A stretch of DNA of 35,973 nt from Dehalococcoidales bacterium (GCA_035527575.1 DATLAD010000057.1:1-35973), one strand, 5' to 3'; shown: positions 8,351-32,144, numbered from the stretch's first letter. Notes: generated from the sequence alone by a model not told the origin. Translations and numbers: made by a program.

Positions 8351-8351
8351 A

Positions 8352-12757: not shown

Positions 12758-12802
12758 CGCTATATCCTCCGAATACCCCTGAAATCCGGCCTGTTTGAGC
12801 CT

Positions 12803-13357
12803 TTAAATGGTCTTATAAGTATTAAAGTAGGCATAAGCATTCCTGATTACCTGGATAAACAACATCAAAAACCCTATGGGGATGATTATCTCTATAGGCC
12901 ATTTGGGCGGGTTCAGTATCGTCGCGAGAGCAAAATGATTTTGATAATCGAATACGGTTAATCGGCTAGTATAAAACACAATCCCTGCCAGAAGAATGAT
13001 ACACATACAAGAAGTTATAAAGTTAACAATAGCCCGGGTTTTCGGTGACAGTCGGCCGGTAACCGAGTCCATTTTCACATGCCCCAGGCTCCTCATCAAA
13101 GAGGTCGTACCCAGAAAAGTCATCCACACGAGGGTATAGGTAATCATTTCATAGAGGAGGTTCCAGGTGATACCGAATGATTTTCTTAAGATGACATCTA
13201 CGGACACAACTATAGCGTCGATGACGATAATGATGGCGGCCGCTAAAAGCATATAATCGATGGACCTGTCAAATATAACTCCGGCCCTGTTTAATGTCTT
13301 CACATCGAATCCTTCCGCCAGATAAACCTGTGCATAGGGATGACAGTAACACGTCAT
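12803..13357 (-). CDS. dctQ: TRAP transporter small permease subunit
   Basis: Four-TM protein between the SBP and DctM genes. The longest ORF starts at 13357. A GTG at 13303 preceded by GGAAGGA (6-nt spacing) gives VKTLNRAGVIFDRSIDYMLL and is a plausible true start. Confidence 0.75.
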   Translation of the reverse strand: MTCYCHPYAQVYLAEGFDVKTLNRAGVIFDRSIDYMLLAAAIIIVIDAIVVSVDVILRKSFGITWNLLYEMITYTLVWMTFLGTTSLMRSLGHVKMDSVTGRLSPKTRAIVNFITSCMCIILLAGIVFYTSRLTVFDYQNHFALATILNPPKWPIEIIIPIGFLMLFIQVIRNAYAYFNTYKTI

Positions 13358-13446
13358 ATATTTACCCTATGCACAGGTTATGCCTTGCATATTATGCCGC
13401 GTATTCCGGTTAACCAGCGGCTTAATAAGGTACACGGGTAAAGATT

Positions 13447-14463
13447 TTATTTAGCCCGCGAGAAATCCGGGTCTACCAGCCACTCTTTCAATTTAGGACC
13501 GACATCCGGCCACCTGGCAATATCCTCGGCCCACATCGAATCCCGGTAAGCCAGGTAGAACGTCCTGGCATCAGCCTTCGACAGGTGGATAATCTTGACG
13601 CCCTGTGCCGAAATATCCTTTTTCACCTGCTCCACGGTCTCGGTGAACATCTTGGCGCCATCGATTTCCGCCTGAATCATTGCCTTGTTCAGAACATCCT
13701 GCTGGGCTTTCGACAGGCTGTTATATTTAGCCATGTTCATGATCATCATGCCACCGCAGGAACTGAACGGCTCGTCCAGCATGGCTACGGTTACCGGCGT
13801 CAGGCTGAAGTCCTGGATGCCCGGTATGCCGATGTTGTAACCATCAACGGTGCCCCTTTCCATCGCCGTGAAGTAATCGGTGAAATCAATAGGAACACAA
13901 ACGGCACCCACGGCCTCGATAAACGACTTGTTGGAACCACCCGTAGCGGCTATTTTCAGGCCTTTCAGGTCCGCCACCCCGGAGATTTCCCTCCCCAGGT
14001 AAAAAACGGTCTGTACCTGGGGTTCTGAAGACACGGACGCACCCAGATAGAGGACACCCTTTTTGGCAAACTCGTCCTGATAGTACTTGAACGCCGGCCC
14101 CTTACGCAGTTCCATGGGGTTGATTTCGGCGCGGCCTATGGAATTCGAGCCCGGAACCAGGGCGTCGCAGAAAGGACCCAGGGAACTGGCGAGATCCACG
14201 GAACCCCTCTGGACGGCAGAGGGAGCATCGGGAGCCGGTATAGCTTCCGGTCCGCTTAATTTTATGGTCACAGCCCCGTTGGAGACTTTGCTTACCTGCT
14301 CAACAAACGAACGGGCCCAGTTGCCGCCGGGCGGAATATCGGGCAGAAAGCTGACCAGGCTAAGCTCTATAGATTCAACCTGGGCTGGCTTGGACGTACA
14401 ACCGGTGATTACCAGGCCGATTGTCAGTAAAATCGCCAGGAATAATAACACTATTTTCTTCAA
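13447..14463 (-). CDS. dctP: TRAP transporter substrate-binding lipoprotein (DctP family)
   Basis: The track ORF begins at 14481 (TTG). However, GGAGGTGA lies inside that extension, 8 nt before a TTG at 14463. That start yields a textbook lipoprotein signal, (M)KKIVLLFLAILLTIGLVITGC, with lipobox ITGC. Confidence 0.8.
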   Translation of the reverse strand: MKKIVLLFLAILLTIGLVITGCTSKPAQVESIELSLVSFLPDIPPGGNWARSFVEQVSKVSNGAVTIKLSGPEAIPAPDAPSAVQRGSVDLASSLGPFCDALVPGSNSIGRAEINPMELRKGPAFKYYQDEFAKKGVLYLGASVSSEPQVQTVFYLGREISGVADLKGLKIAATGGSNKSFIEAVGAVCVPIDFTDYFTAMERGTVDGYNIGIPGIQDFSLTPVTVAMLDEPFSSCGGMMIMNMAKYNSLSKAQQDVLNKAMIQAEIDGAKMFTETVEQVKKDISAQGVKIIHLSKADARTFYLAYRDSMWAEDIARWPDVGPKLKEWLVDPDFSRAK

Positions 14464-14636
14464 TTCAGTCACCTCCGTCAATATTTTACATGCTCCAGAT
14501 CACGAACTAATGACAAGGTAATAATTCTACTCTATTTTTATCGTTCAGATCACCTCCTTTTCGTAAGAAAACGGTGATTTTTTTGTTAATTTCCGCTTAT
14601 TATATTATTCCTGCTTTACTTAAGTCAAGGAAAATA

Positions 14637-16760: not shown

Positions 16761-17492
16761 TCACCGTCCCCCGGCGCGTACGAGAGGTTCTTCTTTCTGA
16801 TACAAACTACCCATCGTTTCCAGGTAAAGCCGGGCGGCACTGACCCTCAGGTGTTTCGAATTATAACCGGGGTCTGCCTTGAGCTTGCTGTACATGCTGT
16901 TGAGGTGGTGCTCGACCGTCTTGATATCGATGAACAGGGTATTGGCGATGGCCGAATTAGTGTAGCCCTGCGAGAGAAGGCTGAGGATTTCCAGCTCACG
17001 GGTGGTGAGCTGCTTGAGGAAGGGGCACTCCGGCTTTCCGGCGAACATAAAAGTAGCCAGCGGCGGGTCGAGGATAACCTGCCCCTGGCTAACCGCCAGA
17101 ATCATCCGGCACAGCTGGTCGACTTTATCCAGGGATTGTTTCAGGAAGAGCGCCATACCGCTTTCTCCGCAGAGCGCCAGCCGGCGCAGTAATTCAATGT
17201 CCTGCGAGCTGTAAAATATGATTAAAATTACTATTCCCATCCTGGGATAGCTGTTCCTGATTCGCTCCAGCTCTTCAATAATATCTATATTAAGCTTCTT
17301 GACACTCAGTAACAAAACGTCAGGATTAAGTTCAGACGCCGCCCGCTCCATAGCTCCTGTATTGCTGTTTTCCGAGACTCGCAGTATTTCAATATTGGAC
17401 CGGTTGGGCAGGACATAACGGTACATCTCCCGGTAAATTTCCTGCTCTTCCACTACGTATAAGCTTACGGTTTCTGACTTTTCCTGAATCAT
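16761..17492 (-). CDS. LuxR/NarL-family transcription regulator with an atypical (Asp-less) receiver domain
   Basis: The C-terminal HTH_LuxR reads LTTRELEILSLLSQGYTNSAIANTLFIDIKTVEHHLNSMYSKL. The N-terminal receiver fold is retained, but the acidic pair is EE (VVEEQE) and the phospho-acceptor position reads PDVLLLSVKKL, with Ser63 where Asp is expected. Transcribed divergently from the first archaellin gene. Confidence 0.75.
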   Translation of the reverse strand: MIQEKSETVSLYVVEEQEIYREMYRYVLPNRSNIEILRVSENSNTGAMERAASELNPDVLLLSVKKLNIDIIEELERIRNSYPRMGIVILIIFYSSQDIELLRRLALCGESGMALFLKQSLDKVDQLCRMILAVSQGQVILDPPLATFMFAGKPECPFLKQLTTRELEILSLLSQGYTNSAIANTLFIDIKTVEHHLNSMYSKLKADPGYNSKHLRVSAARLYLETMGSLYQKEEPLVRAGGR

Positions 17493-17888
17493 ATTAACGC
17501 CTTTCCCTTTATACCTTTTATTACTCTATATTCCCCGCAACCCCCCGCATCCTTCAGCTAACAGCCACTTATGATTGTAAGCCAGTTGTATAAAGAGATT
17601 TATAAAAATTCATAAATATACCATTAAGTTATCATTAATTTTTCATTATATTTTGGCCATTTGGCGAACCACGGCGGGTGTCTGCTTCTGATTTTGCCAT
17701 TTCAACCACTGAATAACAATGGATGCTACCCCCCATTTTGTCATAGGGAATTCCTTAATTTACTATCGGAGACCCCCCCCAGACGATTATTAGGAAAATG
17801 ACATACCAAGATTGGGGATGGTGTAGTGGCCACTGTCAGCCATCGGGGGTAGATTGGGTATATCCATGCCATCGCAAGGGAGGAAATC

Positions 17889-18491
17889 GTGATGCACAGA
17901 TTGGTAAAAAGGGTATTCAGGAGCCAGCGAGGCATCACCGGAATAGAGACAGCCATCATTCTCATCGCCTTCGTCATCGTGGCCTCGGTGTTTGCCTATG
18001 TCGTGCTTTCGGCAGGTCTGTTTTCCACCCAGGTAGCAAAGGAAGCTATTCATTCCGGCCTGGAAGAAGCTAAAAGTACCATAGAGATAAAAGGCAACAT
18101 TTACGGGAAAATGGAGAACAGTGTGCTGACGGAAGTCTACTTTACCGTAGCCACCACCACGGGAGGCGATATGATTGACTTCACCGACACTTCCTCGGCG
18201 AACGCTTCCAACCTCGTCGTTATCTCATACAGCGATGCGTATCAGATATTCCCGACGGTCAACTGGACGATGACCAAGCTGAACACAGATGCCCCGGATA
18301 ACCTGCTCGACAAGAATGAGCTGTTCATGATTACGGTCGATTTAACCTGTGTCAGCGCCAATGCTACCGACGAGCAGAAACCGGGTCCGTACCATAAGTT
18401 CCAGCTGGAAGTGAAGCCGCCGGTCGGCGCCGTGCTCGTTCTTGAGCGCACCGTTCCCGCCAGGGTCGACCAGATTGTCAACCTTTATTAA
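17889..18491 (+). CDS. arlB: archaellin (archaeal flagellin) paralog 1
   Basis: The class III signal peptide and processed N-terminus read ...RSQRG|ITGIETAIILIAFVIVASVFAYVVLSAGLFSTQ, with K/R at -2, G at -1 and G at +3. The conserved C-terminus is ERTVPARVDQIVNLY. GGGAGG RBS; GTG at 17889 or ATG at 17892. Confidence 0.85.
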   Translation: MMHRLVKRVFRSQRGITGIETAIILIAFVIVASVFAYVVLSAGLFSTQVAKEAIHSGLEEAKSTIEIKGNIYGKMENSVLTEVYFTVATTTGGDMIDFTDTSSANASNLVVISYSDAYQIFPTVNWTMTKLNTDAPDNLLDKNELFMITVDLTCVSANATDEQKPGPYHKFQLEVKPPVGAVLVLERTVPARVDQIVNLY

Positions 18492-18524
18492 TTAATGTAA
18501 TCAGATTCTGTCAGTGATACCAAT

Positions 18525-18830
18525 TTGAAGATGTGGGAAGTTATAAGAGGAATCACCGACCGTAAACAAGATAGCAAAGATAGCGCTGCCCTGCTACGGA
18601 TGGCTTCTGCCTTCATTGCGGGTATGGTGATAACGGCAGCCCTGACATACGTTCCAATTATTACCGAAGTATTATCCCACGAGCCAAGCCATGAGTCCGC
18701 CGTGCCGGAGCCATCAGATGCCCCGGATTTACTAAAGCCCGACAGCGGCCCTGACGGGAGCGACCCGGCGAAACATTATTTATACGAACTGGTTTACGCC
18801 CCCCTGGAGGAGGCGATACTTTCTGGTTAA
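18525..18830 (+). CDS. hypothetical single-pass membrane protein between the archaellin genes (doubtful)
   Basis: 101 aa ORF (TTG at 18525 or ATG at 18531) with one hydrophobic helix (AFIAGMVITAALTYVPII) and a Pro/Ser/Asp-rich tail. No recognizable RBS. Confidence 0.3.
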   Translation: MKMWEVIRGITDRKQDSKDSAALLRMASAFIAGMVITAALTYVPIITEVLSHEPSHESAVPEPSDAPDLLKPDSGPDGSDPAKHYLYELVYAPLEEAILSG

Positions 18831-19026
18831 ACGGTATAAACGTACTCGATGAGCCAGTAAACCTGCGCAAAGGAGGGTGAACGGTAATGTGAATATAAGG
18901 GGTAACAACTGAAGATACAAAGCTAAGGAATGGAAGGGGGTGATGTCCACAGTCATAAAATTAAGTAGCTAAAAAGAAAGAAAGGGAACATCTTAACTCG
19001 AAAAATTACCACTAAAGGGAGGAAAA

Positions 19027-19671
19027 ATGATTAAGAAAATTTTGAGACATGAGAAAGGTATTACTGGTCTGGAGACCGCCATTATCCTGATTGCCTTCGT
19101 CGTGGTAGCCGCGGTATTCGCCTACACGGTACTCTCCGCCGGCCTGTTCGCCACCCAGAAGAGCCAGGAGGCTGTCTACTCCGGGTTGAAGGAAGCCCAG
19201 AGCACCCTGGAAATCAGAGGCGCAGTTACCGCAATAGCCGATAGCATCGGTGACGACGGCACCATCAAGCAGATAAGCTTTATCGTAACCAGCGTGCTTG
19301 GCGGCGAGCCAATTGACTTCACCGAACCACTAGCAGGCGCAAGTAACAATGGCACGTCCTCCACCGATAGCAACAACAAGGTAGTCATCAACTATATTGA
19401 CGAGAACCAGAATGTTAATGACCTCTACTGGACTATTACCAAGCTGGGGAACAGTGACGATGACAACCTGTTGGAGCAATACGAGAAGTTCCAGGTAACC
19501 GTAGGTAGCGATAACCTAACTACCAACGGCGGCAACCTTGTTGACGCTCTCAGCACCGACTTAACAGTTAACAAGACCTTCAACCTAGTGGTGCTGACAC
19601 CGGCCGGTGCGGTGCTGCAAATTGAGCGCACCACGCCACCCTACATTGACCAAATAATGAACCTGCACTAA
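19027..19671 (+). CDS. arlB: archaellin (archaeal flagellin) paralog 2
   Basis: Reads MIKKILRHEKG|ITGLETAIILIAFVVVAAVFAYTVLSAGLFATQKSQEAVYSGL, with C-terminus ERTTPPYIDQIMNLH. It has a very strong RBS (AAAGGGAGGAAAAATG) and is followed by a GC-rich hairpin. Confidence 0.9.
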   Translation: MIKKILRHEKGITGLETAIILIAFVVVAAVFAYTVLSAGLFATQKSQEAVYSGLKEAQSTLEIRGAVTAIADSIGDDGTIKQISFIVTSVLGGEPIDFTEPLAGASNNGTSSTDSNNKVVINYIDENQNVNDLYWTITKLGNSDDDNLLEQYEKFQVTVGSDNLTTNGGNLVDALSTDLTVNKTFNLVVLTPAGAVLQIERTTPPYIDQIMNLH

Positions 19672-19690
19672 TTAGTTTTAGTCTGGTACA

Positions 19691-19721
19691 GGGGTGGGGG
19701 TTCTAACCGGACCCCCACCCC
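19691..19721 (+). terminator. GC-rich hairpin after archaellin 2 (terminator/attenuator; no T-run)
   Basis: GGGGTGGGGGT - TCTAACCGG - ACCCCCACCCC, a perfect 11-bp stem 20 nt after the arlB stop. Confidence 0.45.
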
Positions 19722-19820
19722 AACCGTGGTAACAGTGGGTGCTACCCGCTTCCCGAAGCTGTGGGAAATGTGGATGAGAACTTGTAAGCATTCGCTCCGA
19801 AGGAATAATGGAGGTCTGTT

Positions 19821-20297
19821 GTGGACAAAGTCATAACTACAGCTCTACTTATCATAGCGGGAGTTGTGTGTATGATATTTGTCTTTAACAGTGTCTATCC
19901 GATGATAAACCGCTCCAGCCAGGCCATGGTGAGCATGGCCGAACAGGTTGACGAGCGGATGAAGAGCCGGATAAACATTGTTCATGCGGCAAATTCCGCC
20001 AACCGTACGTCCGTTTACCTGTGGATAAAAAACGTGGGCACCCAGCGCATCGTGACCGTTGAAGACAGCGACCTGTTCCTTGGCCAGGAGGACAATTTCG
20101 AGCGCATTCCGTATTCGGCTGATGCGGGAGAAACCTATCCGCAATGGTACTTCAACCTGGAAAACGATACCGAGTGGCAGACAAGTGCCACTCTAAAAAT
20201 TACTGTAACCTACAGCAGCGACCCCGGCGCGGGGACTTATTGGACCAAGTTTATTATACCGAACGGAATATCCGACGAGTATTACTTCAGCATGTAA
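19821..20297 (+). CDS. ArlF/ArlG (FlaF/FlaG) family archaellum stator-like protein
   Basis: 158 aa, GTG start after GGAGG. It has an N-terminal uncleaved hydrophobic helix (VITTALLIIAGVVCMIFVF) followed by a roughly 120 aa beta-rich soluble domain. Size, architecture and position after the archaellins fit FlaF/FlaG. Confidence 0.6.
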   Translation: MDKVITTALLIIAGVVCMIFVFNSVYPMINRSSQAMVSMAEQVDERMKSRINIVHAANSANRTSVYLWIKNVGTQRIVTVEDSDLFLGQEDNFERIPYSADAGETYPQWYFNLENDTEWQTSATLKITVTYSSDPGAGTYWTKFIIPNGISDEYYFSM

Positions 20298-20308
20298 CGG
20301 AGTAACTT

Positions 20309-20824
20309 ATGGAGACAGCCATTGTCTCAATAATATGTATAGCCCTTATAGCGTTCGGCGGCATGACAATGTCCCGGGGATTCATGACGTCGGTTGATGC
20401 CAGCACGACGGGACTCGAGGAGATAGGACAGCGAGATGAAACGATAATGAGGACGGAGCTGACTCCCGTTAGCGCCGGGCAGCCCTCGGCCAACACCCTG
20501 GAGGTCGTGCTGGAAAACAGCGGCCAGACCAAGCTGGCTGATTTTGATAAGTGGGATATCATCGTCCAGTACTACGACGGCACCGGCACCTATCACGTGG
20601 AATGGCTCCCCCATGCCGAAGCGGTACTGGGCGATAACGAATGGGAAGTGGCCTGGATACGGCTTAACGACGGGGCCGAAGTATTTGAGCCGAACGTGTT
20701 AAACCGGCAGGAGCAGATAATGATAAGGGCCCAGCTCAACCCGTCGGTTGGTGCCGCCACTACCAATATGGTGATTGTGGCCACTCCCAGCGGGATTACG
20801 GCTTCAACTTATTTCTCGCCGTAA
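20309..20824 (+). CDS. ArlF/ArlG-like protein, tandem paralog A
   Basis: 171 aa. It has a pilin-like hydrophobic N-terminus (METAIVSIICIALIAFGG) followed by a beta-domain. By eye it is about half identical to the first 170 aa of the next gene (shared GQTKLA-F-KWD-IV-YYDG-G-YH-EWLP...GDNEW...FEPN-LN). Confidence 0.6.
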   Translation: METAIVSIICIALIAFGGMTMSRGFMTSVDASTTGLEEIGQRDETIMRTELTPVSAGQPSANTLEVVLENSGQTKLADFDKWDIIVQYYDGTGTYHVEWLPHAEAVLGDNEWEVAWIRLNDGAEVFEPNVLNRQEQIMIRAQLNPSVGAATTNMVIVATPSGITASTYFSP

Positions 20825-20897
20825 TAAGGCGTCCCGTATTCTGAGTAAAACAGGAGGCATAAATTAGTACTAACCAGGACAATAAGGAGCAAATGAT

Positions 20898-21992
20898 ATG
20901 GCGACGATTGCCGTCTCCATCATATGTATAGTGATGATAGTAGTAGGAGGTATGACGTTGTCCCAGGGAATCCTCACTTCAGCGGACTCTGCCGCCCTCA
21001 GCGTCGAGGAGATTAGCCTGAGAGAGGGAGAATTGGCCAGAACCAACCTGGATACAGTCAGCGCCGCCGAGCTTTCCTGGGCGGACCTCCTGAGGGTAAC
21101 CGTGGTAAATACCGGCCAGACCAAGCTGGCCAGCTTCAACAAGTGGGACTTTATCGTCAATTATTACGATGGCAACGGCGTCTATCATACGGAATGGCTC
21201 CCTTACACCAGCGGAGTGCTCGGTGACAACGAGTGGCAAAAGGCAAGAATCGGCCTTAACGGGCCGATAGAGTTCTTCGAGCCGAACATACTGAACCCCG
21301 AAGAGGAACTGGTAATACTGGCCAGGCTTAACCCGCTCCCGGGTGATGCTACAACCGGCGATGTAACCATAGCCAGTCTCAACGGGGTCTGTGACTCCAT
21401 TTCTTTTTCCAACCCCGGCTACACGCTGCTTAATCCCCACTCGGAAAATACCACCATTGCCAGTACCAGGTATTACCAGCTAGAAGAAGCCGCCCCGTCC
21501 GATGGCCCCGCAATGACGGTAATTACAGACATCTTTCAAGTTGAAGAATCAGGAAGAAAGATGATGCACAGCGAAAATGAGCCATCCAGACCGGCAAGAC
21601 ATATATTCCCGCTGACCGGAATCAGCCAGGTCCCGGCAGCCACCTGGACGGCCTATTACCGCTGCCTCGCCTCAGGACTGAGTAACATCCAGGACAATGA
21701 GGTTAATTTTGATATCGACGTAGTGATTCGGAAGGCGGACGGCACCGTAAGAACAACGCTGGCCACGAATGTAGCCAATGCCTATCTACAAAGTATCGAA
21801 CTGGATAGTTGGCTGACTAAAAGCGCCACCTATAACTTCCCCGGTTATACGGTGGTCGATGATAGCGACTACCTCGAGATAGTCTACTACGGGGAAATAA
21901 CAGGTAATGGTTCCGACACAGAGGGATACCTGCTGATAAGCATTGACGACGATACCCTGCCTCTGGCTGACCAGACCAGGATAGAAGGTTAA
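20898..21992 (+). CDS. ArlF/ArlG-like protein, tandem paralog B, with a roughly 190 aa C-terminal extension
   Basis: 364 aa. Residues 1 to about 171 are collinear with the preceding gene product. Residues from about 172 to 364 (nt 21411..21992) have no counterpart in it and no motif I recognize. Confidence 0.6.
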   Translation: MATIAVSIICIVMIVVGGMTLSQGILTSADSAALSVEEISLREGELARTNLDTVSAAELSWADLLRVTVVNTGQTKLASFNKWDFIVNYYDGNGVYHTEWLPYTSGVLGDNEWQKARIGLNGPIEFFEPNILNPEEELVILARLNPLPGDATTGDVTIASLNGVCDSISFSNPGYTLLNPHSENTTIASTRYYQLEEAAPSDGPAMTVITDIFQVEESGRKMMHSENEPSRPARHIFPLTGISQVPAATWTAYYRCLASGLSNIQDNEVNFDIDVVIRKADGTVRTTLATNVANAYLQSIELDSWLTKSATYNFPGYTVVDDSDYLEIVYYGEITGNGSDTEGYLLISIDDDTLPLADQTRIEG

Positions 21993-22005
21993 TTGGGGAA
22001 AAGAC

Positions 22006-23514
22006 ATGCTGGAAAAGTTAAAAAAATTAATATCTAGAAGCGACGATAGCGGTAAGAGCAAGAATAAAACCAACCGCCTGATGAGCTTCGACCTGTTCTA
22101 CCAGCTATCGTACATGTCAACGGTCGCTGCCGCCGGTGTGCCGCGCGACCAGATTTTTGAGCGTTCCGCCGAGCTCCAGTGCTCCTCTGCCGAGTATTTT
22201 AAGCATGTAGAGCTGGCACGCAAGCGGTTGAAATACGATTACGCCCGGGCCTGCCGCGCCGTGGGAGAACCGCTCAAGGAAGCAGAGGTCAAGGGGCTCC
22301 TCCTCCGCTTTTCCAGCTCCCTCATCTCCGGCGAACCCGAAGCCGATTTTCTCACGAGAGAAGCCCATGCGCGGGCCGAAGACTATGAAAACGAGTACAG
22401 TAGAAGCCTGGAATCGATGAAAATGTGGACCGACGCCTATGTCTCCCTCATCCTTTCGGCGGTCCTGATAGTAGTCATCGGGATTGTCGCTACCATGATA
22501 TGGAAAATAGAAACGATGCTTATTATAGCCATGGCATTTATCTCAATCGCCACCACCGTCATCGGCGTCTGGCTGATATGGCTGGTCTCGCCGAAAGAGA
22601 CCACGGTCTTACGCTGGGCCGGCTCAAAAGAACAAAAGCTCGCCAGCAGGCTCTTTAAACCCGTCCTGCCGATTGTCGTGACCGTCGGCGCCCTCTTTTT
22701 ACTGACCGGGCAGAACCTGGGACTGGCATTTCTGGTTATCGCGGGACTGGTCTTCCCGGTCGGTATTATCATGACGCGGGATGACCGGAAGGTATACAAG
22801 CGTGATGACGAAGTGGGAACATTCCTGCGTTCACTGGGCGGTGTTTGTACGGCGCTGGGGACAACGGTGAATTCCGCCCTGGGCCGCCTCGACCTCGATG
22901 CCATCAACTTGCTGAGGAGTTCGGTTAAGAACCTGCACACGAGACTCACCGCCGGCATCAAGTCAAGGTTGTCCTGGAAGTTATTCATCGACGAGACCGG
23001 AAGCGAACTGGCCCACCGCAGCGTGGGCATGTTCTATGACGCCATCGAAGTGGGCGGCTCGGCAGGACAGGCCGGGCAGCACGCCGCGGCCTTCGCCAAC
23101 AGGGTCGCGCTTCTCAGGGCGAGACGAAGGACGATATCCGGTCCTTTCCGCTGGCTCTGCATGACCATGCACGCTGCCGTCGTGGTGATACTGGTCTTTA
23201 TCACCGAGGTCATCGTGGCTTTCGGCGGTATGTTAACCAAAGCCCAGGAGTCAATGCCGACAGTATCCGGGGGCCCTTCGCTGAGCTCTTTATCCAGCTT
23301 CAACCTCTCCGGACTGGATCTCATGCAACAGATGGTGTTGCCTCTGGTCCTGATATTCACGGTAGCCAATGCTATCGTACCCAGTCTGGCGGAGGGGGGT
23401 AGTAAATATAAAATTTTAAACAATCTGGGATTTACCGCGGCTATTTCCGGTATATGCCTTCTCATCCTGCCGGCATTAGCCAGTACGTTATTTACATCCG
23501 TTTCTCAAATATAA
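22006..23514 (+). CDS. arlJ: archaellum assembly platform membrane protein ArlJ (FlaJ; TadC/PilC-like)
   Basis: 502 aa. The cytoplasmic N-domain reads FDLFYQLSYMSTVAAAGVPRDQIFERSA, as in FlaJ. A duplicated T2SS-F-like architecture has multiple TM helices. Confidence 0.8.
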   Translation: MLEKLKKLISRSDDSGKSKNKTNRLMSFDLFYQLSYMSTVAAAGVPRDQIFERSAELQCSSAEYFKHVELARKRLKYDYARACRAVGEPLKEAEVKGLLLRFSSSLISGEPEADFLTREAHARAEDYENEYSRSLESMKMWTDAYVSLILSAVLIVVIGIVATMIWKIETMLIIAMAFISIATTVIGVWLIWLVSPKETTVLRWAGSKEQKLASRLFKPVLPIVVTVGALFLLTGQNLGLAFLVIAGLVFPVGIIMTRDDRKVYKRDDEVGTFLRSLGGVCTALGTTVNSALGRLDLDAINLLRSSVKNLHTRLTAGIKSRLSWKLFIDETGSELAHRSVGMFYDAIEVGGSAGQAGQHAAAFANRVALLRARRRTISGPFRWLCMTMHAAVVVILVFITEVIVAFGGMLTKAQESMPTVSGGPSLSSLSSFNLSGLDLMQQMVLPLVLIFTVANAIVPSLAEGGSKYKILNNLGFTAAISGICLLILPALASTLFTSVSQI

Positions 23515-23524
23515 GGAGGTAAAC

Positions 23525-23716
23525 ATGAACACAAATACTAATATCGGGACAGAAACCAGCCTTGACTCTGTCGAAGCCGAATTCCAGGAAGTAAGAGACG
23601 AATTGAAAGAGATACTCTTTGATATCCGTATTTACTTAATGGAAGCGCAAACCCCAATCCCCAACGACCTGGACCGGGAAAGGCTTCGTGAAGAGCTTGA
23701 AACGGAAAGGGGGTAA
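23525..23716 (+). CDS. small acidic coiled-coil protein, ArlC (FlaC)-like
   Basis: 63 aa with a strong RBS (AAGGAGG). The segment LDSVEAEFQEVRDELKEILFDIRIYLMEAQTP aligns with the N-terminus of the next gene product (LETIQDEIKLLKGELKQSLASVRDYLLNMELP). Confidence 0.55.
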   Translation: MNTNTNIGTETSLDSVEAEFQEVRDELKEILFDIRIYLMEAQTPIPNDLDRERLREELETERG

Positions 23717-23722
23717 AACATC

Positions 23723-24895
23723 ATGGCAGAAGATAAGAGACTCGAGACTATTCAAGATGAAATCAAGCTGCTGAAGGGGGAACTAAAGCAGTCACTGGCC
23801 AGCGTTCGAGATTACCTGCTTAACATGGAACTGCCTTCTTCAGAATTTTCCACCATCCTGGCGGCTCTCAGCACTGATGGTGAACAGAAAATAACCATGA
23901 AGGGCAGCTTCACCAACCCGCAAGATAACGCCCCTCGTGCGGAACCCCAGGATGAGCTTACCGAAACGGTGTCAGAGGACGCCGGCGGGGAGTCCGTCGA
24001 AGAAGAATCAGAAATGCCCGGAGAAGACGAGGACCTGATTGACGTGGAAGGGCCGCTCGGAAAAGAATCGGAGAGGCTCACCGACGATGATTTGATGGGC
24101 GAAGAGGCGGGCATTGCCCCTGAAGACGAACTGTTTTCCCCGCAAGACGCCATCGAAGACGAAGAACTCGGTGAACCCGAAGAACTCAGTGAACCCGAAG
24201 AACTCAGTGAACCCGAAGAACTCGGTGAACCCGAAGAACTCGGTGAACCCGAAGAACTCGGTGAACCCGAAGAACTCGGTGAACCCGAAGAACTCGGTGA
24301 ACCCGAAGAACTTTATGAACAGGATGAACCCATCACGCCAGAATCGGAGATGTCAGAGGAGGAACAGCCCGTGGGCAACGACAAGACTATTGCTACTGCT
24401 AATGCAGATGCCGATGAAATGAGCTCAGCCATACCGAAGGTCAACATGCTGGCCAATCTGATAAACTGGGCCTCCCGCGCCAAGAAAGAAATAGGCTACG
24501 ACCAGTTGCCCGTATTCCTGGAAGTCTATGGCATCAGCGGACACCTGTCTCAGGAGTTGAAAGACGTCATCCTGCACCTTTCCGAACTGACGGCGGAGCG
24601 TCCCGAGGTCGCCAACAACGCCGAAGTCTGGAGCCAGTTAATGCTGTCGCTGCACGGCATTCTCACGGGAGGCGATGCCCCGCTTCACCCGGTAATTCCG
24701 TTCTGGAGCGAAGCCAGCATCGCGGAAGAGCCGGCCGAGGAAGAGATAATCGAAGTAGACAAGCCCAGGGGAAAAAAAGTGCCGGTAAAACTGAAACTGG
24801 TATTCCCGAACGGTGACGGCAAGAGCAAAGAGTTTTGCATCGACCTCAATCCCGAGGAGGATAATGACGACTCTTCCAGCAAGCGCAAAAACTGA
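23723..24895 (+). CDS. ArlC/D/E (FlaC/D/E)-like archaellum motor-scaffold protein with an acidic repeat linker
   Basis: 390 aa with three parts: an N-terminal FlaC-like coiled coil, a long acidic low-complexity region including (EPEELG/S)x8, and a C-terminal region. The C-terminal region (IPKVNMLANLINWASRAKKEIGYDQLPVFLEVYGISGHLSQELKDVILHL) resembles the FlaD/E domain pattern. Confidence 0.6.
   Translation: MAEDKRLETIQDEIKLLKGELKQSLASVRDYLLNMELPSSEFSTILAALSTDGEQKITMKGSFTNPQDNAPRAEPQDELTETVSEDAGGESVEEESEMPGEDEDLIDVEGPLGKESERLTDDDLMGEEAGIAPEDELFSPQDAIEDEELGEPEELSEPEELSEPEELGEPEELGEPEELGEPEELGEPEELGEPEELYEQDEPITPESEMSEEEQPVGNDKTIATANADADEMSSAIPKVNMLANLINWASRAKKEIGYDQLPVFLEVYGISGHLSQELKDVILHLSELTAERPEVANNAEVWSQLMLSLHGILTGGDAPLHPVIPFWSEASIAEEPAEEEIIEVDKPRGKKVPVKLKLVFPNGDGKSKEFCIDLNPEEDNDDSSSKRKN
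24161..24322 (+). repeat. 18-bp tandem repeat GAAGAACTC(G/A)GTGAACCC, 8 full units plus 1 degenerate
   Basis: Read directly. The units are identical except for a G/A at position 10 in units 2-3. The array is in-frame inside 23723..24895 and encodes EELGEP/EELSEP. Confidence 0.95.
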
Positions 24896-24924
24896 AAATC
24901 CCCGAAAGAGAGAGGTGATTAATA

Positions 24925-25641
24925 ATGGCAACGACACAGAAAAAGAAAGAGTTCATAGTTACCGGCGTACCGGAAGTTGATGATAAGCTGGGCGGCGGTA
25001 TTCCCCTTGGTTCACTGTGCCTTATCGAAGGCCACTCTGACGCCGGAAAAAGTGTCTTATGCCAGCATCTGACCAACGGCACCCTGATTAATGGCGAGAT
25101 TTCGGTAGCGTATTACACTACGGAAAACAACATCAGAAGCCTGATAAGCCAGATGGAATCGCTGGCAATGTACGTACTGGACCACTTCCTGGCAGACCGC
25201 CTGCGGATTTACCCGTTAACCTTTCACAGTCATATGCAGGGCGGCCAAAAACCTTTTTATGTCCTGACACACCATTTTTCCAAACAGCCACAGGACTTCA
25301 AACTGATAATAGTGGACTCTATTACGCTGCTGGTGGCGCACAGCAACCCGGTAGCCATCATCGATTTCTTTTCCAGATGCAAGGGCTTATGTGATGAAGG
25401 TAAAACGATAATCGTGGTGGCGCATTCTTATGCTTTCGAGGAGGACATGCTTGCCCGGACCCGCTCATTATGCGACGCGCGTTTCAGGCTCCGCCTGGAG
25501 CAGGTCGGCGATAGCATGATAAAACTCATGGAGGTACTCAAGGTACGTGGCGCCGAGCGCCCCACCGGAGACGTGGTCAGTTTCAATATCGAACCCAAGA
25601 TTGGCATGCGGATAATCCCGCTTGCCAAGGCGAGAGTCTAG
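24925..25641 (+). CDS. arlH: ArlH (FlaH), KaiC/RecA-like ATP-binding archaellum protein
   Basis: 238 aa. The segment VPEVDDKLGGGIPLGSLCLIEGHSDAGKSVLCQHL contains Walker A (GHSDAGKS), and Walker B is KLIIVDSIT. Size and position immediately before the ArlI gene fit ArlH. Confidence 0.8.
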   Translation: MATTQKKKEFIVTGVPEVDDKLGGGIPLGSLCLIEGHSDAGKSVLCQHLTNGTLINGEISVAYYTTENNIRSLISQMESLAMYVLDHFLADRLRIYPLTFHSHMQGGQKPFYVLTHHFSKQPQDFKLIIVDSITLLVAHSNPVAIIDFFSRCKGLCDEGKTIIVVAHSYAFEEDMLARTRSLCDARFRLRLEQVGDSMIKLMEVLKVRGAERPTGDVVSFNIEPKIGMRIIPLAKARV

Positions 25642-25649
25642 GAGATTAA

Positions 25650-27449
25650 ATGCTTCGTCTGCCGTTTGAACTAAAAGCCTGCCCCGGGGAGTGCGGGAAG
25701 GAATGCGGGAACGCCACGGAAAAGTGCCCGGTATTCCAGAAAATCCCGGCCGAGTTCCAGGAGGTATGCAAGAAAAATCCGCATCTCCTCCAGTACCTGC
25801 ACATGCTTCCCGCGGATAAGATTGCCATTCCGCAGTACTACGAAAAAGTGACGCGGGCTTTAAAAGGCACCAAAAACCCCGACCTTATCTATAGTGTCGG
25901 CAGCGGGGTATTCGTTCATGTCCTGGCCAATCTTGAAGACATCAGGGACTACTATATCGCCGTGGAACCGAGCCTCATCGACCCGCAGGATAGCACCCTC
26001 GACGAGATAGAGTTGAAGCTTGCCGACTATGTCGAAGAGCTCGAGGGTATCGCCGACTCCTCAAAGCGTCTCGAAATCATCATGAGAATCGTCGACAGGA
26101 TTGTCGCGGTCAGCGGCTATAAAGCCCCCGAACCACAGCCGGACGCAAAGAAAGCCGACGCAGACAGTAAAAACGATACCAATAAAAAAGAGAGAAAACC
26201 TCTCTTCCTTAAGTCAAAAGGAAGCTCCAAGGGAAAGATACATATAACCAAGCTCCAGTATACCAGCCTCCGCTATCTGCTGCGGCGTAAGCTGGAAGGC
26301 ATGGGCCTCCTGGACCCCATGATACTGGACCCCAACATCGAAGATATTTCATGTTCCGGTCTCGGTAATATCTTTGTGGAGCATAAAATCTTCGGCGGTC
26401 TCAGGGCCAGCATCGGATTCGAGACCAACGAAGCGCTGGACAAATTCGTCATCGAGCTGGCCGAGGGTATCAAGCACCCGGTTACGTTCCGCGAACCGGT
26501 CGTCGACGCCACGCTGCCCGACGGCTCCCGTATCAATATCGTCTACGGCACCGACGTTTCCAAGCGGGGCAGCAACTTCACCATCAGGAAATTCAGCGAT
26601 ACGCCGCTGAGCATACTGGAGCTTATCCAGTTCGGCGCGCTTAACTACGACATGGCCGCTTACCTGTCCATAATACTCCAGGAAGGGATGAACGTCTGGG
26701 TATCCGGGGAAACGGCTTCCGGCAAAACAACCCTGATGAATGCGCTGACCACCTTTATCCCGCCCGAGTCGAAGATAGTAAGTATCGAAGACACCCCGGA
26801 AGTCCAGGTGCCACACCATAACTGGATTCGCGGGGTTACCCGCGGTTCCGCCAAGGATGCGGACTCCTCCGAGGTATCCATGTTCGACCTTCTCAAGGCT
26901 GCCCTGCGGCAGAGGCCCAACCTTATCATCATCGGCGAGATTCGTGGTGTCGAAGGGGCTATCGCCTTTCAGGCAATGCAAACCGGTCATGCCACGATGA
27001 GCACCTTCCACGCCGCCTCCGTATCCAAGCTCATCCAGCGTGTTACCGGCAACCCCATCAACGTACCCAAGACGTACGTGGACAATCTTAACGTCGTCGT
27101 TATCTGCCAGCAGGTCCGGCTGGCCAACGGCGGCCTGGCCCGGCGCCTGACCAGCATCAATGAAATCGTCAACTACGATTCGATAGCCGACTCGTTTTCT
27201 TTCATCGAGACCTTCTGTTGGAACCCTCTGAACGACACTTTTCTGTTCCGGGGTTTCCAGAACTCATACCTGCTGGAGAATAAAATCGCCCCCAGGCGCG
27301 GCCTGCCGGAAGAAAAAAGAAGGCAGATATACAAGGTATTAAAGCAAAGGTCTGACGTCCTGAAGCGTATTTGCGACCAGGGAAAAACTGATTTTTACGA
27401 AGTCTATGCAATATTATCCAAGGCGTACCGCGAGGGGTACTTCCGATAA
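25650..27449 (+). CDS. arlI: ArlI (FlaI) archaellum assembly/motor ATPase (type II/IV secretion NTPase family)
   Basis: 599 aa. It has Walker A (GETASGKTT), the Asp box and Walker B region (RQRPNLIIIGEIRG) and the His box (TGHATMSTFHA). The N-terminal Cys-rich segment and a Lys-rich insertion are unusual. Confidence 0.9.
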   Translation: MLRLPFELKACPGECGKECGNATEKCPVFQKIPAEFQEVCKKNPHLLQYLHMLPADKIAIPQYYEKVTRALKGTKNPDLIYSVGSGVFVHVLANLEDIRDYYIAVEPSLIDPQDSTLDEIELKLADYVEELEGIADSSKRLEIIMRIVDRIVAVSGYKAPEPQPDAKKADADSKNDTNKKERKPLFLKSKGSSKGKIHITKLQYTSLRYLLRRKLEGMGLLDPMILDPNIEDISCSGLGNIFVEHKIFGGLRASIGFETNEALDKFVIELAEGIKHPVTFREPVVDATLPDGSRINIVYGTDVSKRGSNFTIRKFSDTPLSILELIQFGALNYDMAAYLSIILQEGMNVWVSGETASGKTTLMNALTTFIPPESKIVSIEDTPEVQVPHHNWIRGVTRGSAKDADSSEVSMFDLLKAALRQRPNLIIIGEIRGVEGAIAFQAMQTGHATMSTFHAASVSKLIQRVTGNPINVPKTYVDNLNVVVICQQVRLANGGLARRLTSINEIVNYDSIADSFSFIETFCWNPLNDTFLFRGFQNSYLLENKIAPRRGLPEEKRRQIYKVLKQRSDVLKRICDQGKTDFYEVYAILSKAYREGYFR

Positions 27450-27505
27450 AAATAAGAGGGAACGGATAGCAGGTTTACGATAGTTTGCTATCATGGAGGT
27501 CACCA

Positions 27506-28045
27506 ATGCGTTTAAAAGGTTTTAATATAGGCAAATCCAAAGAAAAGCCCAAAGACGCCGCCGAGACGGAAGGCACCACGATTGAGCAAATCGTCGAGAT
27601 GGAAGAAAAGATTAACGGCAGGACCAAGAACCTCGAGGAAACGGCGCAGCAGCTGCTGGAGCTCTCCGATGAAGGCGTTACCCCTGTGGAGGATGCGCAT
27701 GTTTTAGCCAGGCCCCACGGACCTGTGGCCGAGCTATCGATCGAACCTGAAGATACAATGTCCGACATCGATGATTTAGATGCAGGGGCGGACGTGTTCG
27801 AGGCAGGCGGGGAAGGAATTAAGGTCGTCGAGGTAAGCGCGGGAACTCCCCCACCGCCGAAAGAGGAGAAAGAGGTAAAACTGGAGGATTTCAGTGATTC
27901 CATTAACAACCTCTTCAGCGATGAGGAGGAGGAAGAGAACCCGCTGGCCAACCTCATCAAGTCGATGCCCGATGTGACGACCGGGGAACTAATGGACGAT
28001 TTGAACGAGATAAAGGGAATTATAAAAGAATGGCAGAAAAGCTAA
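27506..28045 (+). CDS. highly acidic cluster-associated protein, unknown function
   Basis: The track ORF starts at TTG 27485. An ATG at 27506 lies 6 nt after GGAGG and gives MRLKGFNIGKSKEKPK... The protein is 179 aa and Glu/Asp-rich, with a short basic N-terminus and a predicted helical C-terminus (NPLANLIKSMPDVTTGELMDDLNEIKGIIKEW). Confidence 0.6.
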   Translation: MRLKGFNIGKSKEKPKDAAETEGTTIEQIVEMEEKINGRTKNLEETAQQLLELSDEGVTPVEDAHVLARPHGPVAELSIEPEDTMSDIDDLDAGADVFEAGGEGIKVVEVSAGTPPPPKEEKEVKLEDFSDSINNLFSDEEEEENPLANLIKSMPDVTTGELMDDLNEIKGIIKEWQKS

Positions 28046-28260
28046 ATAAGATATACCGCGCAGTCCGGGGATTCCTGCTCACGGGACTGAGGGAATTCCC
28101 CGATAAAATAGGGGGTTATCATGGTTGCCTGCCATGGTACAGCAGTAGTAGCCTGAAACTGAAGGGCAACCGGGCAAAATTGCCCGCAATACCTGTTGTC
28201 GTTGATGAAGCCATGGCTAGGAAGCGATCGTACCCTTTAAACCAGGGAGGCCGAAGATGA
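28030..28260 (+). CDS. possible small basic protein filling the arl/kinase gap (doubtful)
   Basis: 76 aa ORF. It overlaps the upstream stop by 16 nt and ends in an ATGA overlap with the kinase start. It has no clear RBS and contains several rare-looking codons, and the region also folds into hairpins. Confidence 0.2.
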   Translation: MAEKLNKIYRAVRGFLLTGLREFPDKIGGYHGCLPWYSSSSLKLKGNRAKLPAIPVVVDEAMARKRSYPLNQGGRR

Positions 28261-29759
28261 GTTACAAACGCAATAAAAAAAGCTGGTGGGCAAATAAACA
28301 CCTGCGGTACATCATAACCATCATGGTGCTTTGTTCCATCATTTACTATCTGCCCGTTATCGGCGGCTTATTCGGCTGGACATCCATGGAGAACTCCCTC
28401 AACAGCCTCCACGATTTCTACGGGATTGACTTTCTCGGTCTGATATTCTTCGCACCGGTGGTATACACCGCCTATGTGCTCGGCGTCATACCGGCTGTAC
28501 TTTCCGCCCTTATCGCCATGTTAATCCTGCTACCTTACGCCATACTGATAGACACCTATCCCAACGCCCTGTTCAAACCTACGGCCTTCGTTATCATCCT
28601 CAGCGCCGTCGGAGCGGCCATCGCTTTGCTTCAGAAAAGCGAGGCAGAGCACCGCCAGAGGATGAAAGAGATGAAATGCCTCTACGATACCGGCAAGGCG
28701 GTGGAAGAGAGCGGCTCCATAGACGAGTTCCTCGCGAAGGTGGTGGCCCTTATTCCCCACGCCATGCAGTCCCCCGAAGAAACCAATGTCAGAATCACCT
28801 TCCAGGACCAGGTCTACAAAAGCCCCGGTTTCCAGAAATCTCTAAGTAAGATAACGGAGAACCTGGTGGTGGGCGGCGAAGCGATGGGGCTCGTGGAGAT
28901 ATACTCCTCCCGCGATAACCCTTATTTAAAGAAGAGAAACCACCTGACCAAGACCCTCGTGGAGAGAATCGGCGGGGCTATCCGGCAGCTGGAACTGGAG
29001 CAGTCGTTACAGGGCTACTACGAACAGCTTGAAGACGAGGTCGAAAGCCGGACGAAGGACCTGGAGCACGTACAGCAGAAGCTCATCCGCTCCGAGAGGC
29101 TGGCCGCCGTCGGCGAGCTGGCCTCGGGCGTCGGCCACGAACTGCGCAACCCGCTGAACGTGATAAGGAACTGCGCCTATCTGCTCAATATGGCCATCAC
29201 CGATAAAGGCGACGAGGAGGCTGCGAATACCCTGAAAGTCCTGGACAAGCAGATTGACATCGCCAACAAAATCGTCACCGACCTGCTGGACTTCACCCGC
29301 ATTACGCCGCCATCGCCGGACATAGTCGACCTCAACCATTTAATCAACGAAAGCCTGTCATGGATATCCGTACCGGAGCACGTCACCGTGAAGGCCAACC
29401 TCAACGGCCATCCCATGAAGGTCAGGACGGATGCCGAGCAGATAAGCCGCGCCTTCACCAACATCATTTCCAATGCCATACAGGCCATGAACAGGAAAGA
29501 CGGAAAGCTGGACATAGACACCGGCACGGAGGACAGCTTTATCTGGATTAAAATCCAGGACAACGGCTGCGGCATACCGGAAGAGAACATGAGCAAGATA
29601 TTCGAGCCGCTCTTTACCACCAAGCCTAAGGGTATCGGCCTGGGGCTGGCCATTACGAAAAGGCTCATCGAGCAAAACGGAGGCAAAATAGAAGTCGCCA
29701 GCCAGGCAGGCCAGGGCACAACCTTTACCGTGAAGCTACCGTTAGAAAAAAGGAGATAG
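28257..29759 (+). CDS. membrane sensor histidine kinase (TM - GAF-like - HisKA - HATPase_c)
   Basis: 500 aa with about 4 N-terminal TM helices. Motifs: H-box ELASGVGHELRNPLN, N-box ISNAIQAM, G1 DNGCGIP, G2 GIGLGLAI. Confidence 0.85.
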   Translation: MSYKRNKKSWWANKHLRYIITIMVLCSIIYYLPVIGGLFGWTSMENSLNSLHDFYGIDFLGLIFFAPVVYTAYVLGVIPAVLSALIAMLILLPYAILIDTYPNALFKPTAFVIILSAVGAAIALLQKSEAEHRQRMKEMKCLYDTGKAVEESGSIDEFLAKVVALIPHAMQSPEETNVRITFQDQVYKSPGFQKSLSKITENLVVGGEAMGLVEIYSSRDNPYLKKRNHLTKTLVERIGGAIRQLELEQSLQGYYEQLEDEVESRTKDLEHVQQKLIRSERLAAVGELASGVGHELRNPLNVIRNCAYLLNMAITDKGDEEAANTLKVLDKQIDIANKIVTDLLDFTRITPPSPDIVDLNHLINESLSWISVPEHVTVKANLNGHPMKVRTDAEQISRAFTNIISNAIQAMNRKDGKLDIDTGTEDSFIWIKIQDNGCGIPEENMSKIFEPLFTTKPKGIGLGLAITKRLIEQNGGKIEVASQAGQGTTFTVKLPLEKRR

Positions 29760-29766
29760 ACCTGAA

Positions 29767-30528
29767 ATGAATGACGAACCGACGATTCTCGTAGTCGATG
29801 ATAACGAGGATTTACTGGAGACATTTGCCATGATTCTGAAGCGGCGCGGTTTTTACGTGGAAACGGCGAGCAACGGGGCATCCGCCGTAAACAAGTTTAA
29901 AGAACAGGACTTCGACGTTACGCTGATGGACATCGTCATGCCCGAGATGAACGGCGTGGAGGCCTTCCGTAAAATAAAGGAGACGCATCCCGAAGCCTCT
30001 ATCATACTGATGACGGCCTATTCCGACGAAGACCTGCTTCAGTCAGCCAAAGACGAGGGCGTTCGCCGGATTATACAGAAGCCGATAAGGATAGAGCAGC
30101 TGATAAAGCTGATTAACGAGGCAGCCAGCAGCGAGCCGATTCTCGTCATCGATGACGACGCCGATATCTGTGATACCCTGACACAGGTATTGAAACGGCA
30201 GGGGCACGAGGTATTGACGGCGGGCAGCGGTGAAGAGGCAATTATCATAGCGCAGGAAAAAGCCTGCCAGATAGCATTTATCGATGTCAAGCTGCCGAAC
30301 ATAGACGGACTGGAGACCCTCCTCCGCCTGAAGGAAATCAACCCGGATATCCTCACTGTCATGATGACCGGCTTCCGTAACGAAGTTAAAGAAGCCCTGG
30401 ACAAGGCACAGAAAGCTTCGGCGATTACCTGCCTTTACAAACCCTTCGACCCCGCCGAAGCCGCCGATATAGTGAAGAAAATCGGTAAAAAGGCACGTCA
30501 TTCCAGGAGAGTAGATGAAGGCAAATGA
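29767..30528 (+). CDS. tandem-receiver response regulator (REC-REC, no output domain)
   Basis: 253 aa. REC1 reads ILVVDDNEDL...DVTLMDIVMPEMNG...KP. REC2 reads ILVIDDDADI...IAFIDVKLPNIDG...YKP. Both keep the acidic pair, the acceptor Asp and the Lys. Confidence 0.85.
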   Translation: MNDEPTILVVDDNEDLLETFAMILKRRGFYVETASNGASAVNKFKEQDFDVTLMDIVMPEMNGVEAFRKIKETHPEASIILMTAYSDEDLLQSAKDEGVRRIIQKPIRIEQLIKLINEAASSEPILVIDDDADICDTLTQVLKRQGHEVLTAGSGEEAIIIAQEKACQIAFIDVKLPNIDGLETLLRLKEINPDILTVMMTGFRNEVKEALDKAQKASAITCLYKPFDPAEAADIVKKIGKKARHSRRVDEGK

Positions 30529-32131: not shown

Positions 32132-32144
32132 AGGGGGAACAGCT

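Follow-up and report, generated by a model that had tools for sequence, protein, structure and literature searches.

An arl2-type archaellum gene cluster on a Dehalococcoidales contig

Archaellum gene clusters are known from Chloroflexota, where 244 of them have been described in SAR202, Anaerolineales, Dehalococcoidales and Thermofilales (Sivabalasarma et al., Nat Microbiol 2025; PMC12488501). In these clusters arlG stands ahead of arlF, as in the arl2 type, and arlCDE is found, not arlX. [quoted passage not shown] In the same work the swimming archaellum of Litorilinea aerophila was solved at 2.7 Å, with ArlB starting from Ile29, and the machinery was traced to Methanotecta-like Euryarchaeota, from which it passed by transfer to the ancestor of Dehalococcoidia and Anaerolineae. 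Chloroflexota lack CheF, and another component may connect signalling to the motor there. The Tad pilus is thought to stem from an older archaeal transfer (PMC12488501). ArlH, ArlG, ArlF and ArlC/D/E distinguish archaella from archaeal pili (PMC12488501; 2026 TFF preprint). Here we describe an archaellum gene cluster at 17889-28045, on the plus strand of a contig of 35,973 nucleotides (nt) labelled Dehalococcoidales bacterium at NCBI (DATLAD010000057.1); the whole contig is called the window below.

We conclude with high confidence that this cluster is a genuine archaellum operon of the arl2 type, carried in the chromosome of an uncultured bacterium of the Dehalococcoidales (Chloroflexota), and that it comes from the transfer already described. 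The locus is real, intact and conserved; it is an example of the kind described in 2025 and is no longer novel. The initial annotation had mentioned that archaellum-like clusters occur in a few Chloroflexota. This is correct and decisive, as the 244 published clusters include those of Dehalococcoidales; therefore, the interpretation given at that time and most of the peculiarities listed with it are already in print. In the main text of PMC12488501 we found neither the acidic protein family presented below nor its regulators and upstream element mentioned. The acidic family, a beta-sandwich domain in a second ArlF and a 330-nt upstream region with phased hexamers may thus be new.

Genes of the operon

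Genes were taken from a list of open reading frames (ORFs) and scanned against Pfam and NCBIfam profiles; related loci are numbered from L001 upward. The run, all of it on the plus strand, reads arlB1, arlB2, arlG, arlF, arlF′, arlJ, a gene for an ArlC-like protein of 63 amino acids (aa), a gene for a putative ArlC/D/E-type protein, arlH, arlI and a gene for an acidic protein. All 11 arl-associated ORFs are intact, and a Shine-Dalgarno-like motif is found 3-12 nt 5′ of each arl start. Since every gene listed initially is present where it was placed, with such motifs, the observation of a complete archaellum locus is confirmed. It had also been said that all genes are co-oriented, with short gaps and good ribosome-binding sites. 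The ribosome-binding sites are there, but the first gene (16761-17492) is on the minus strand, and arlB1 and arlB2 stand 536 nt apart. In searches with profile hidden Markov models, which had been proposed as a check, ArlB1 and ArlB2 (Arch_flagellin), ArlI and ArlH exceed the cut-offs, while ArlJ, ArlF and the ArlC/D/E-type proteins stay below them.

The motor and assembly ATPase ArlI (25650-27449) scores 653 bits with the FlaI equivalog model NF058587 (cut-off 550). The next best NCBIfam model is BasE with 172 bits, followed by TadA with 155 (cut-off 373) and PilB with 63 (cut-off 676); among solved structures, ArlI gives 429 bits with FlaI 4ii7 and 148 bits with CpaF. The KaiC-like ATP-binding protein ArlH (24925-25641) scores 249.8 bits with the FlaH model NF004723 (cut-off 194), 191 bits with NF052589 and 59 bits with the KaiC family of Pfam. 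The membrane platform protein ArlJ (22006-23514) matches NF004703 over residues 18-497 with E = 1.4e-115, and T2SSF above cut-off. Its top three NCBIfam matches are all ArlJ/FlaJ models, the best of them at 387 bits against an equivalog cut-off of 570. With a strong full-length match and a score under the cut-off, ArlJ is therefore a homologue too divergent for automatic naming. The presence of ArlH, ArlI and ArlJ, as claimed initially, is borne out.

The N-terminus of ArlI (residues 1-35, window 25650-25760) carries a C-x3-C-x3-C-x6-C motif. All four cysteines are restricted to the clade whose gene order is rearranged (L001-L015 and L030); in other lineages there are one or two Cys or His at this place. 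The motif may be a metal-binding site.

A Tad/Flp or type IVa pilus was considered for the cluster and rejected, given the TadA and PilB scores of ArlI and the match of the filament subunits to Arch_flagellin, not to Flp. Family scans of the window yield no TadZ, RcpC, PilMNOPQ or other Tad/Pil accessory families. The distinction of this archaellum from Tad and type IV pili, made initially on gene content, thus holds: ArlI prefers FlaI to TadA by 653 to 155 bits, and ArlH, ArlG, ArlF and a putative ArlC/D/E-type protein are present.

The two archaellins ArlB1 (17889-18491) and ArlB2 (19027-19671) score 108 and 86 bits with the Pfam family Arch_flagellin (PF01917, cut-off 29.5 bits), and both also exceed the cut-off of TIGR02537, the archaellin/type IV pilin N-terminal domain. 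They are 44% identical to each other. The likely start of arlB1 is the ATG at 17892, with a GGGAGG motif 7-8 nt 5′ of it. With the cleavage site shown as a slash, the N-termini read ...RG/ITGIETAIILIAFV in ArlB1 and ...KG/ITGLETAIILIAFV in ArlB2. Residue 12 of ArlB2 pairs with residue 1 of the mature chain 9i5h of the PDB (ITALETAIILIAFV..., 125 bits), and the next-best PDB match is the Methanospirillum hungatei archaellin 5tfy. Because the alignment begins at the first residue of the mature chain, the cleavage site is placed after the Gly of KG/ITG. Two archaellin-type class III signal peptides had been noticed before, and the family scores as well as this alignment, which starts right after the Gly, agree with it. 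Judged by its sequence, the start ITALETAIILIAFV of 9i5h appears consistent with ArlB of L. aerophila, which starts at Ile29 (PMC12488501).

The 536-nt gap between the archaellin genes holds a single doubtful ORF with a TTG start (18525-18830, plus strand), which would encode 101 aa with one hydrophobic segment. It has no Shine-Dalgarno motif and no match among Pfam and NCBIfam families, it is kept in L001, L002 and L012 only, and it may not be a gene. Separately, the region 5′ of arlB2 (~18930-18950, GGAAGGGGGTGATG) resembles a block ahead of arlB2-type genes in L010 and L011.

Three ArlF/G-like proteins had been reported, and predicted folds resolve them into ArlG and two ArlF paralogues. 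Structures of the 19821-20297 and 20898-21992 products were predicted with AlphaFold2 (AF2) from alignments of metagenomic homologues and compared by Foldseek. The model of the former has a pLDDT score (predicted local distance difference test) of 81.5, and its best match is Sulfolobus FlaG 5tuh (E 1.3e-8, template modelling (TM) score 0.90, root-mean-square deviation 2.0 Å), followed by FlaF; the gene at 19821-20297 is identified as arlG because of this best match. Its product scores 30.9 bits with PF01917. The model of the 20898-21992 product has a pLDDT of 87, and its residues up to ~170 match FlaF 4zbh/4p94 (E 1e-6, TM 0.83). Its N-terminal 171 residues are 53% identical to the product of 20309-20824, which itself reaches 26 bits with FlaF_Ig-like and E = 0.0016 with the ArlF model, both sub-threshold. 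This identity and the FlaF fold of the longer protein make the two genes arlF (20309-20824) and a paralogue, arlF′ (20898-21992). The three archaellin-fold proteins each start with an N-terminal helix. The stator pair is hence present in the order G, then F, with sequence models under threshold and predicted folds that match.

ArlF′ differs from ArlF in an extra C-terminal domain of ~190 aa (residues ~172-364, window 21410-21992), confidently predicted as a beta-sandwich, with weak Foldseek matches to carbohydrate-binding-module and (viral) jelly-roll folds. Among the fetched loci this extension is found only in L001-L012 and in one 678-aa minus-strand ORF of L031; more than 120 full-length ArlF′ homologues occur in metagenomes. 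The beta-sandwich may adapt the anchoring of the machine to the envelope of this lineage.

Between arlJ and arlH lie two genes for which FlaC-like and FlaD/E-like products had been proposed. The first (23525-23716), with GGAGG 5 nt 5′ of its start, encodes a small ArlC-like helical protein of 63 aa. It shares homology with the 390-aa product of the second gene, and with archaeal proteins at the ArlD/E position, in their N-terminal helix; with FlaC_arch it gives E = 0.059. The second (23723-24895) encodes an ArlC/D/E-type acidic protein with an N-terminal helix, an acidic linker of ~8 EPEEL(G/S) repeats (window 24170-24300), a C-terminal ArlD/E-like domain and a tail, KLKLVFPNGDGKSKEFCIDL (window 24780-24895). 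The tail is present in L001-L015 and L030, and not in archaeal or distant homologues. Neither product has an above-threshold match in Pfam or NCBIfam, nor anything usable at relaxed thresholds, and a profile of the ArlC/D/E-type family finds no relative among PDB sequences. A profile made from the C-terminal domain and run iteratively on ORFs from 80 related loci reaches the ArlD/E-position proteins in all ten archaeal loci of the set. These archaeal (Methanosarcinales) proteins match Arch_fla_DE with E of 0.0003-0.03, in the same part of the model and below the gathering score; in the family as a whole, 9 of 33 members match it, the best with E = 3e-4, again all below the gathering score. In alignment A2 all share a helix that is followed by a variable acidic linker and then by a C-terminal domain in which a Trp is invariant. 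As this layout is common to them and the archaeal proteins, 'ArlC-like plus ArlC/D/E-type' is the best reading of the 63-aa and 390-aa sequences. The initial proposal is thus made plausible by profile links to the Methanosarcinales ArlD/E-position proteins, and not by a direct above-threshold match.

Host, integrity and conservation

Relatives were collected by scanning a single genome of each GTDB species with ArlI. The closest ArlI proteins, at 73-86% identity, all come from metagenome-assembled genomes (MAGs) of Dehalococcoidales, Dehalococcoidaceae and other Chloroflexota, and those of archaea (Methanosarcina, Methanosarcinales and others) are ~50-53% identical. The same gene order is found in L001-L012, both flanks included, wherever the fetched DNA reaches, which means at least 12 Dehalococcoidales MAGs from different studies. 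The flanks consist of a minus-strand gene for a NarL-type regulator ahead of the run and, after the acidic gene, of genes for a histidine kinase (HK), a REC-REC protein, a hybrid HK and an OmpR-type regulator. L013-L015, L023 and L030 have this order without arlF′; the sequences of L016-L018 are shorter, and what there is of them matches. The junction ArlH-ArlI-acidic protein-HK-response regulator recurs in four more assemblies that were made independently, two of SRR runs by Logan and two from ENA. Since the junction was obtained four more times and the flanks are syntenic, the contig is no chimera.

The host is a bacterium, and the inter-domain transfer proposed initially stands: the bacterial flanks are syntenic and the closest ArlI relatives are from Chloroflexota. 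An archaeal, mis-binned or chimerically assembled contig could be thought of, as the sequence is part of a MAG and the deepest homologues of all arl genes are in Archaea. The Dehalococcoidales label, the flank synteny and the repeated junction speak against it, and so do the even GC content across the junctions (0.47-0.55), the identity of ArlI to Chloroflexota rather than to archaeal proteins, and the remainder of the contig, with its ordinary metabolic genes and with two-component regulators whose types are common in bacteria. We regard such an origin as very unlikely and assign it next to no probability. The remaining genes encode a TRAP transporter, a molybdopterin oxidoreductase with iron-sulfur and NrfD subunits, an esterase, a thiamine diphosphate enzyme and two-component regulators, and there is one tRNA-Lys.

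With the operon thus placed in a Dehalococcoidales chromosome, its conservation can be considered. In the clade, identity clearly rises above that at third positions when all codon positions are counted, as under purifying selection, and near-full-length homologues in metagenomes number in the hundreds. An inactive relic of the ancient transfer, no longer in use, would agree with a window that encodes no signal peptidase. We give it very little probability in view of the 11 intact ORFs with their Shine-Dalgarno motifs, of protein identity far above that of third positions, of the conserved non-coding region upstream and of the many metagenomic homologues.

In a neighbour-joining tree of ArlI, midpoint-rooted and with no outgroup, the order with arlJ ahead maps to a single clade (L001-L018, L023 and L030), and the arlF′ duplication to an inner clade (L001-L012). 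The gene order listed as a peculiarity in the initial annotation is thus real, but it is a trait of one clade and not of this contig, and such variation is covered by PMC12488501.

Further upstream of the operon, a three-subunit molybdopterin oxidoreductase (4Fe-4S, NrfD-like and catalytic subunits) and a TRAP transporter (DctPQM) are encoded at 7625-11415 and 11441-14481; they are unrelated to the archaellum.

The acidic protein, the upstream region and the regulators

The last gene of the run (27506-28045) encodes an acidic protein of 179 aa with a conserved C-terminal motif, which belongs to an unannotated family of archaellum loci. GGAGG is found 6 nt upstream of its start, and an identical 179-aa protein is in the database (P0121, hypothetical protein VMW86_02500). 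Neither Pfam nor NCBIfam has a family for it, also at relaxed thresholds, and in the archaellum literature searched we found no mention of it, which is no proof that the family is undescribed. With a profile of the family, an ORF directly 3′ of the last core arl gene (arlJ or arlI) is recognised in 61 Chloroflexota loci, and by eye in a 62nd; nearly all loci that lack it end there. The conserved part is a motif of ~60 aa at the C-terminus, which reads D-x-[LI]-x2-[LF], an acidic run and L-x2-L-x3-[LP]-[DE]-[VI]-x3-E-L-x5-E-[VI]-x3-L.

An acidic ORF also lies one or two genes from arlJ in all ten archaeal loci, and in nine of them a similar motif can be seen by eye. Profile-profile comparison of the Chloroflexota and archaeal sets gives 91% probability with P = 1.1e-6 and a score of 37.5; 200 column shuffles give 8.0 ± 1.8 (maximum 15.4, none of the 200 reaching the score), and the reversed alignment 11.4. 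Given this homology, the gene is not a bacterial addition and came with the cluster. The extra acidic gene of the initial annotation is hence present, but it is not a bacterial add-on, being homologous to acidic ORFs near arlJ in archaeal loci of Methanosarcinales type.

In L040 (13048-14820) and L046 (7947-9296) the motif is N-terminal and is followed by a transmembrane segment and LysM, in L040 also by Peptidase_M23. In Anaerolineae loci the motif comes after two transmembrane segments. Other members are found at L054:7385-8101, L059:13976-14650 and L036:13374-13913. As the motif is fused to transmembrane parts and, in two Dehalococcoidia loci, to LysM/M23 wall-binding domains, we suggest that it gives the motor a cytoplasmic docking module. 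It is possible, and we propose it tentatively, that the acidic protein is an unrecognised conserved component of arl2-type clusters, moved with the machine in the transfer, and serves as a coupling partner in Chloroflexota, which have no CheF. Speculatively, it could link signals or anchoring to the motor, in this clade together with the two-component cluster. The family is thus a concrete candidate for a motor-associated partner in place of CheF. Close by (28030-28260), an ORF of 76 aa has been called in four other assemblies; it overlaps with the end of the acidic gene and with the beginning of that for the histidine kinase.

On the other side of the operon, the 330 nt ahead of arlB1 (17560-17888) form a conserved non-coding region, as shown by comparison of ten genomes. 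It is 69-82% identical to the nine related genomes, while for the neighbouring genes the identity at third codon positions is 43-70%. Six hexamers of the form [T/C]AT[A/T]A[A/T] start at 17589, 17601, 17611, 17622, 17633 and 17644 (array 17589-17649), at spacings of 12, 10, 11, 11 and 11 nt; they are kept in 9-10 of the ten genomes, and the spacers vary. The triple-phased hexamer pattern is unique in the window, has no match in 100 shuffles and, among 84 loci, recurs only at the same position in eight related ones. A palindrome GCCAnnnTGGC follows at 17656-17665, and further conserved blocks (GATTTTGCCA, ATTATTAGGAAAA, AAGATTGGGGATGG and GGGGGTAGATTG) extend up to the ribosome-binding site. 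A structured RNA or riboswitch in the arlB1 leader was considered and rejected in favour of sites at the DNA level, as RNAalifold on ten sequences gives -10.6 kcal/mol with a covariation of 0.03; Rfam, run in E-value mode on the upstream region, gives noise only and no match.

The divergent gene at 16761-17492 (minus strand) encodes a NarL/LuxR-family regulator with a GerE helix-turn-helix (50.9 bits). It aligns over its full length with NarL/MadR-type response regulators, below their cut-offs. Its receiver domain is barely recognisable (E = 0.024 of the N-terminus with Response_reg), and at the phospho-acceptor position, by eye, the sequence DVLLLS has Ser for Asp. The gene is syntenic in L001, L002, L005 and L007-L014. 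Directly downstream of the operon, Pfam and NCBIfam profiles identify a two-component cluster (28257-32840, plus strand) of a membrane histidine kinase (28257-29759), a REC-REC protein (29767-30528), a REC-GAF hybrid kinase (30515-32131) and an OmpR/PhoB-family regulator (~32145-32840). It occupies the same place in L001, L003-L014 and L016-L018; the OmpR-type gene was not seen in L016, and L002 and L015 end before the cluster. Bacterial-type regulators, which had been described as attached to the locus, are thus present on both sides and conserved in synteny. Past the two-component cluster, 1.2 kb away, a stand-alone receiver of 139 aa with CheY-like architecture is encoded (34056-34475); its closest models are OmpR-family, not CheY.

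For regulators of the OmpR/PhoB type, direct repeats in phase are typical. The OmpR/PhoB-type regulator of the downstream cluster may thus act on the hexamer array. In this case bacterial regulators and a conserved phased-repeat candidate operator would have been grafted onto archaeal structural genes, as a domestication of the transferred machine. Promoters and terminators of bacterial type had been brought forward initially as well. Within the locus we count 15 sigma-70-like promoter motifs against 10.6 ± 2.6 expected from shuffles and 18 terminator-like motifs against 13.2 ± 4.0, so neither is enriched, and the argument is not upheld from consensus scans.

Proposed working and comparison with known systems

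The working of the machine is proposed here by homology to archaeal systems and to that of L. aerophila, whose function is demonstrated. A signal peptidase of class III, with its gene outside the contig, would cut pre-ArlB1 and pre-ArlB2 after the Gly of ...(R/K)G/ITG. A hexamer of ArlI on the ArlJ platform, presumably modulated by ArlH, would use ATP for the assembly of the filament and then for its rotation. ArlG and ArlF would form the extracytoplasmic stator, joined in this clade by ArlF′ with its beta-sandwich, and the small ArlC-like protein together with the ArlC/D/E-type protein a cytoplasmic ring. Expression would be under bacterial control, with the atypical NarL/LuxR protein and the kinase/double-receiver/hybrid-kinase/OmpR-type cluster as candidates, which might act via the hexamers at ~11-bp phasing. 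By analogy with L. aerophila, where both are demonstrated, ATP-driven rotation and swimming are what we expect from this locus.

Several points weigh against this picture of an archaellum operon from the described transfer. ArlJ and ArlF are both under the curated cut-offs for their names, and the assignment of the ArlC/D/E-type proteins is transitive, made through sub-threshold similarity. For a class III signal peptidase, there is no Peptidase_A24 in the scanned ORFs and no GxGDxK in the six frames of the 36-kb contig. What the regulators do is purely inferred. The direction of transfer is not readable from a tree with no outgroup, and the donor lineage is therefore taken from PMC12488501. 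Cultured Dehalococcoidaceae are described as non-motile.

The last point would also fit a cluster that builds a non-rotary surface filament, such as an adhesion or type IV-like pilus, in place of a swimming organelle, as would the window, which has neither chemotaxis genes nor CheF, and the general absence of CheF from Chloroflexota (PMC12488501). We consider such a filament unlikely, since the cluster has, in conserved form, ArlH, ArlG, ArlF and a putative ArlC/D/E-type protein, ArlI passes the FlaI equivalog cut-off and a homologous Chloroflexota locus drives swimming (PMC12488501). An archaellum operon, hence, is the reading which we compare with the known systems.

Tad/Flp and type IVa pili are, like the archaellum, members of the type IV filament superfamily. 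They share with this locus an ATPase of VirB11/GspE type, a polytopic platform and pilin-like subunits that carry class III signal peptides; unlike it, these pili have no counterparts of ArlH, ArlG, ArlF and the ArlC/D/E-type protein.

Closer are the arl2 systems of Methanotecta (Methanosarcinales and M. hungatei). Their order B-(C/D/E)-G-F-H-I-J is that of distant Chloroflexota loci, the archaellin N-terminus TGLE(T/A)AI(I/V)LIAFVVVAAVF is nearly identical in M. hungatei 5tfy, and they share the layout of the ArlC/D/E-type protein and, after arlJ, an acidic ORF whose C-terminal motif is the same. The present locus differs from them in ArlI (~50-53% identity), in its bacterial host and regulators and in the absence of CheF reported in PMC12488501.

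The closest system is the Chloroflexota archaellum itself (PMC12488501). Both have copies of arlB, arlG before arlF, a putative arlCDE-type gene and not arlX, and arlH, arlI and arlJ in one locus of a monoderm Chloroflexota host, with the signal peptidase encoded outside it. Unlike there, arlJ here precedes the arlC-like gene, arlCDE, arlH and arlI, a second arlF carries the beta-sandwich, and the place of adjoining cheY, pilN and pilO-LysM is taken by the two-component cluster and the NarL-type regulator. That an entire rotary motor of archaeal type works in bacteria is striking biology, published in 2025, and to it this contig adds one Dehalococcoidales instance.

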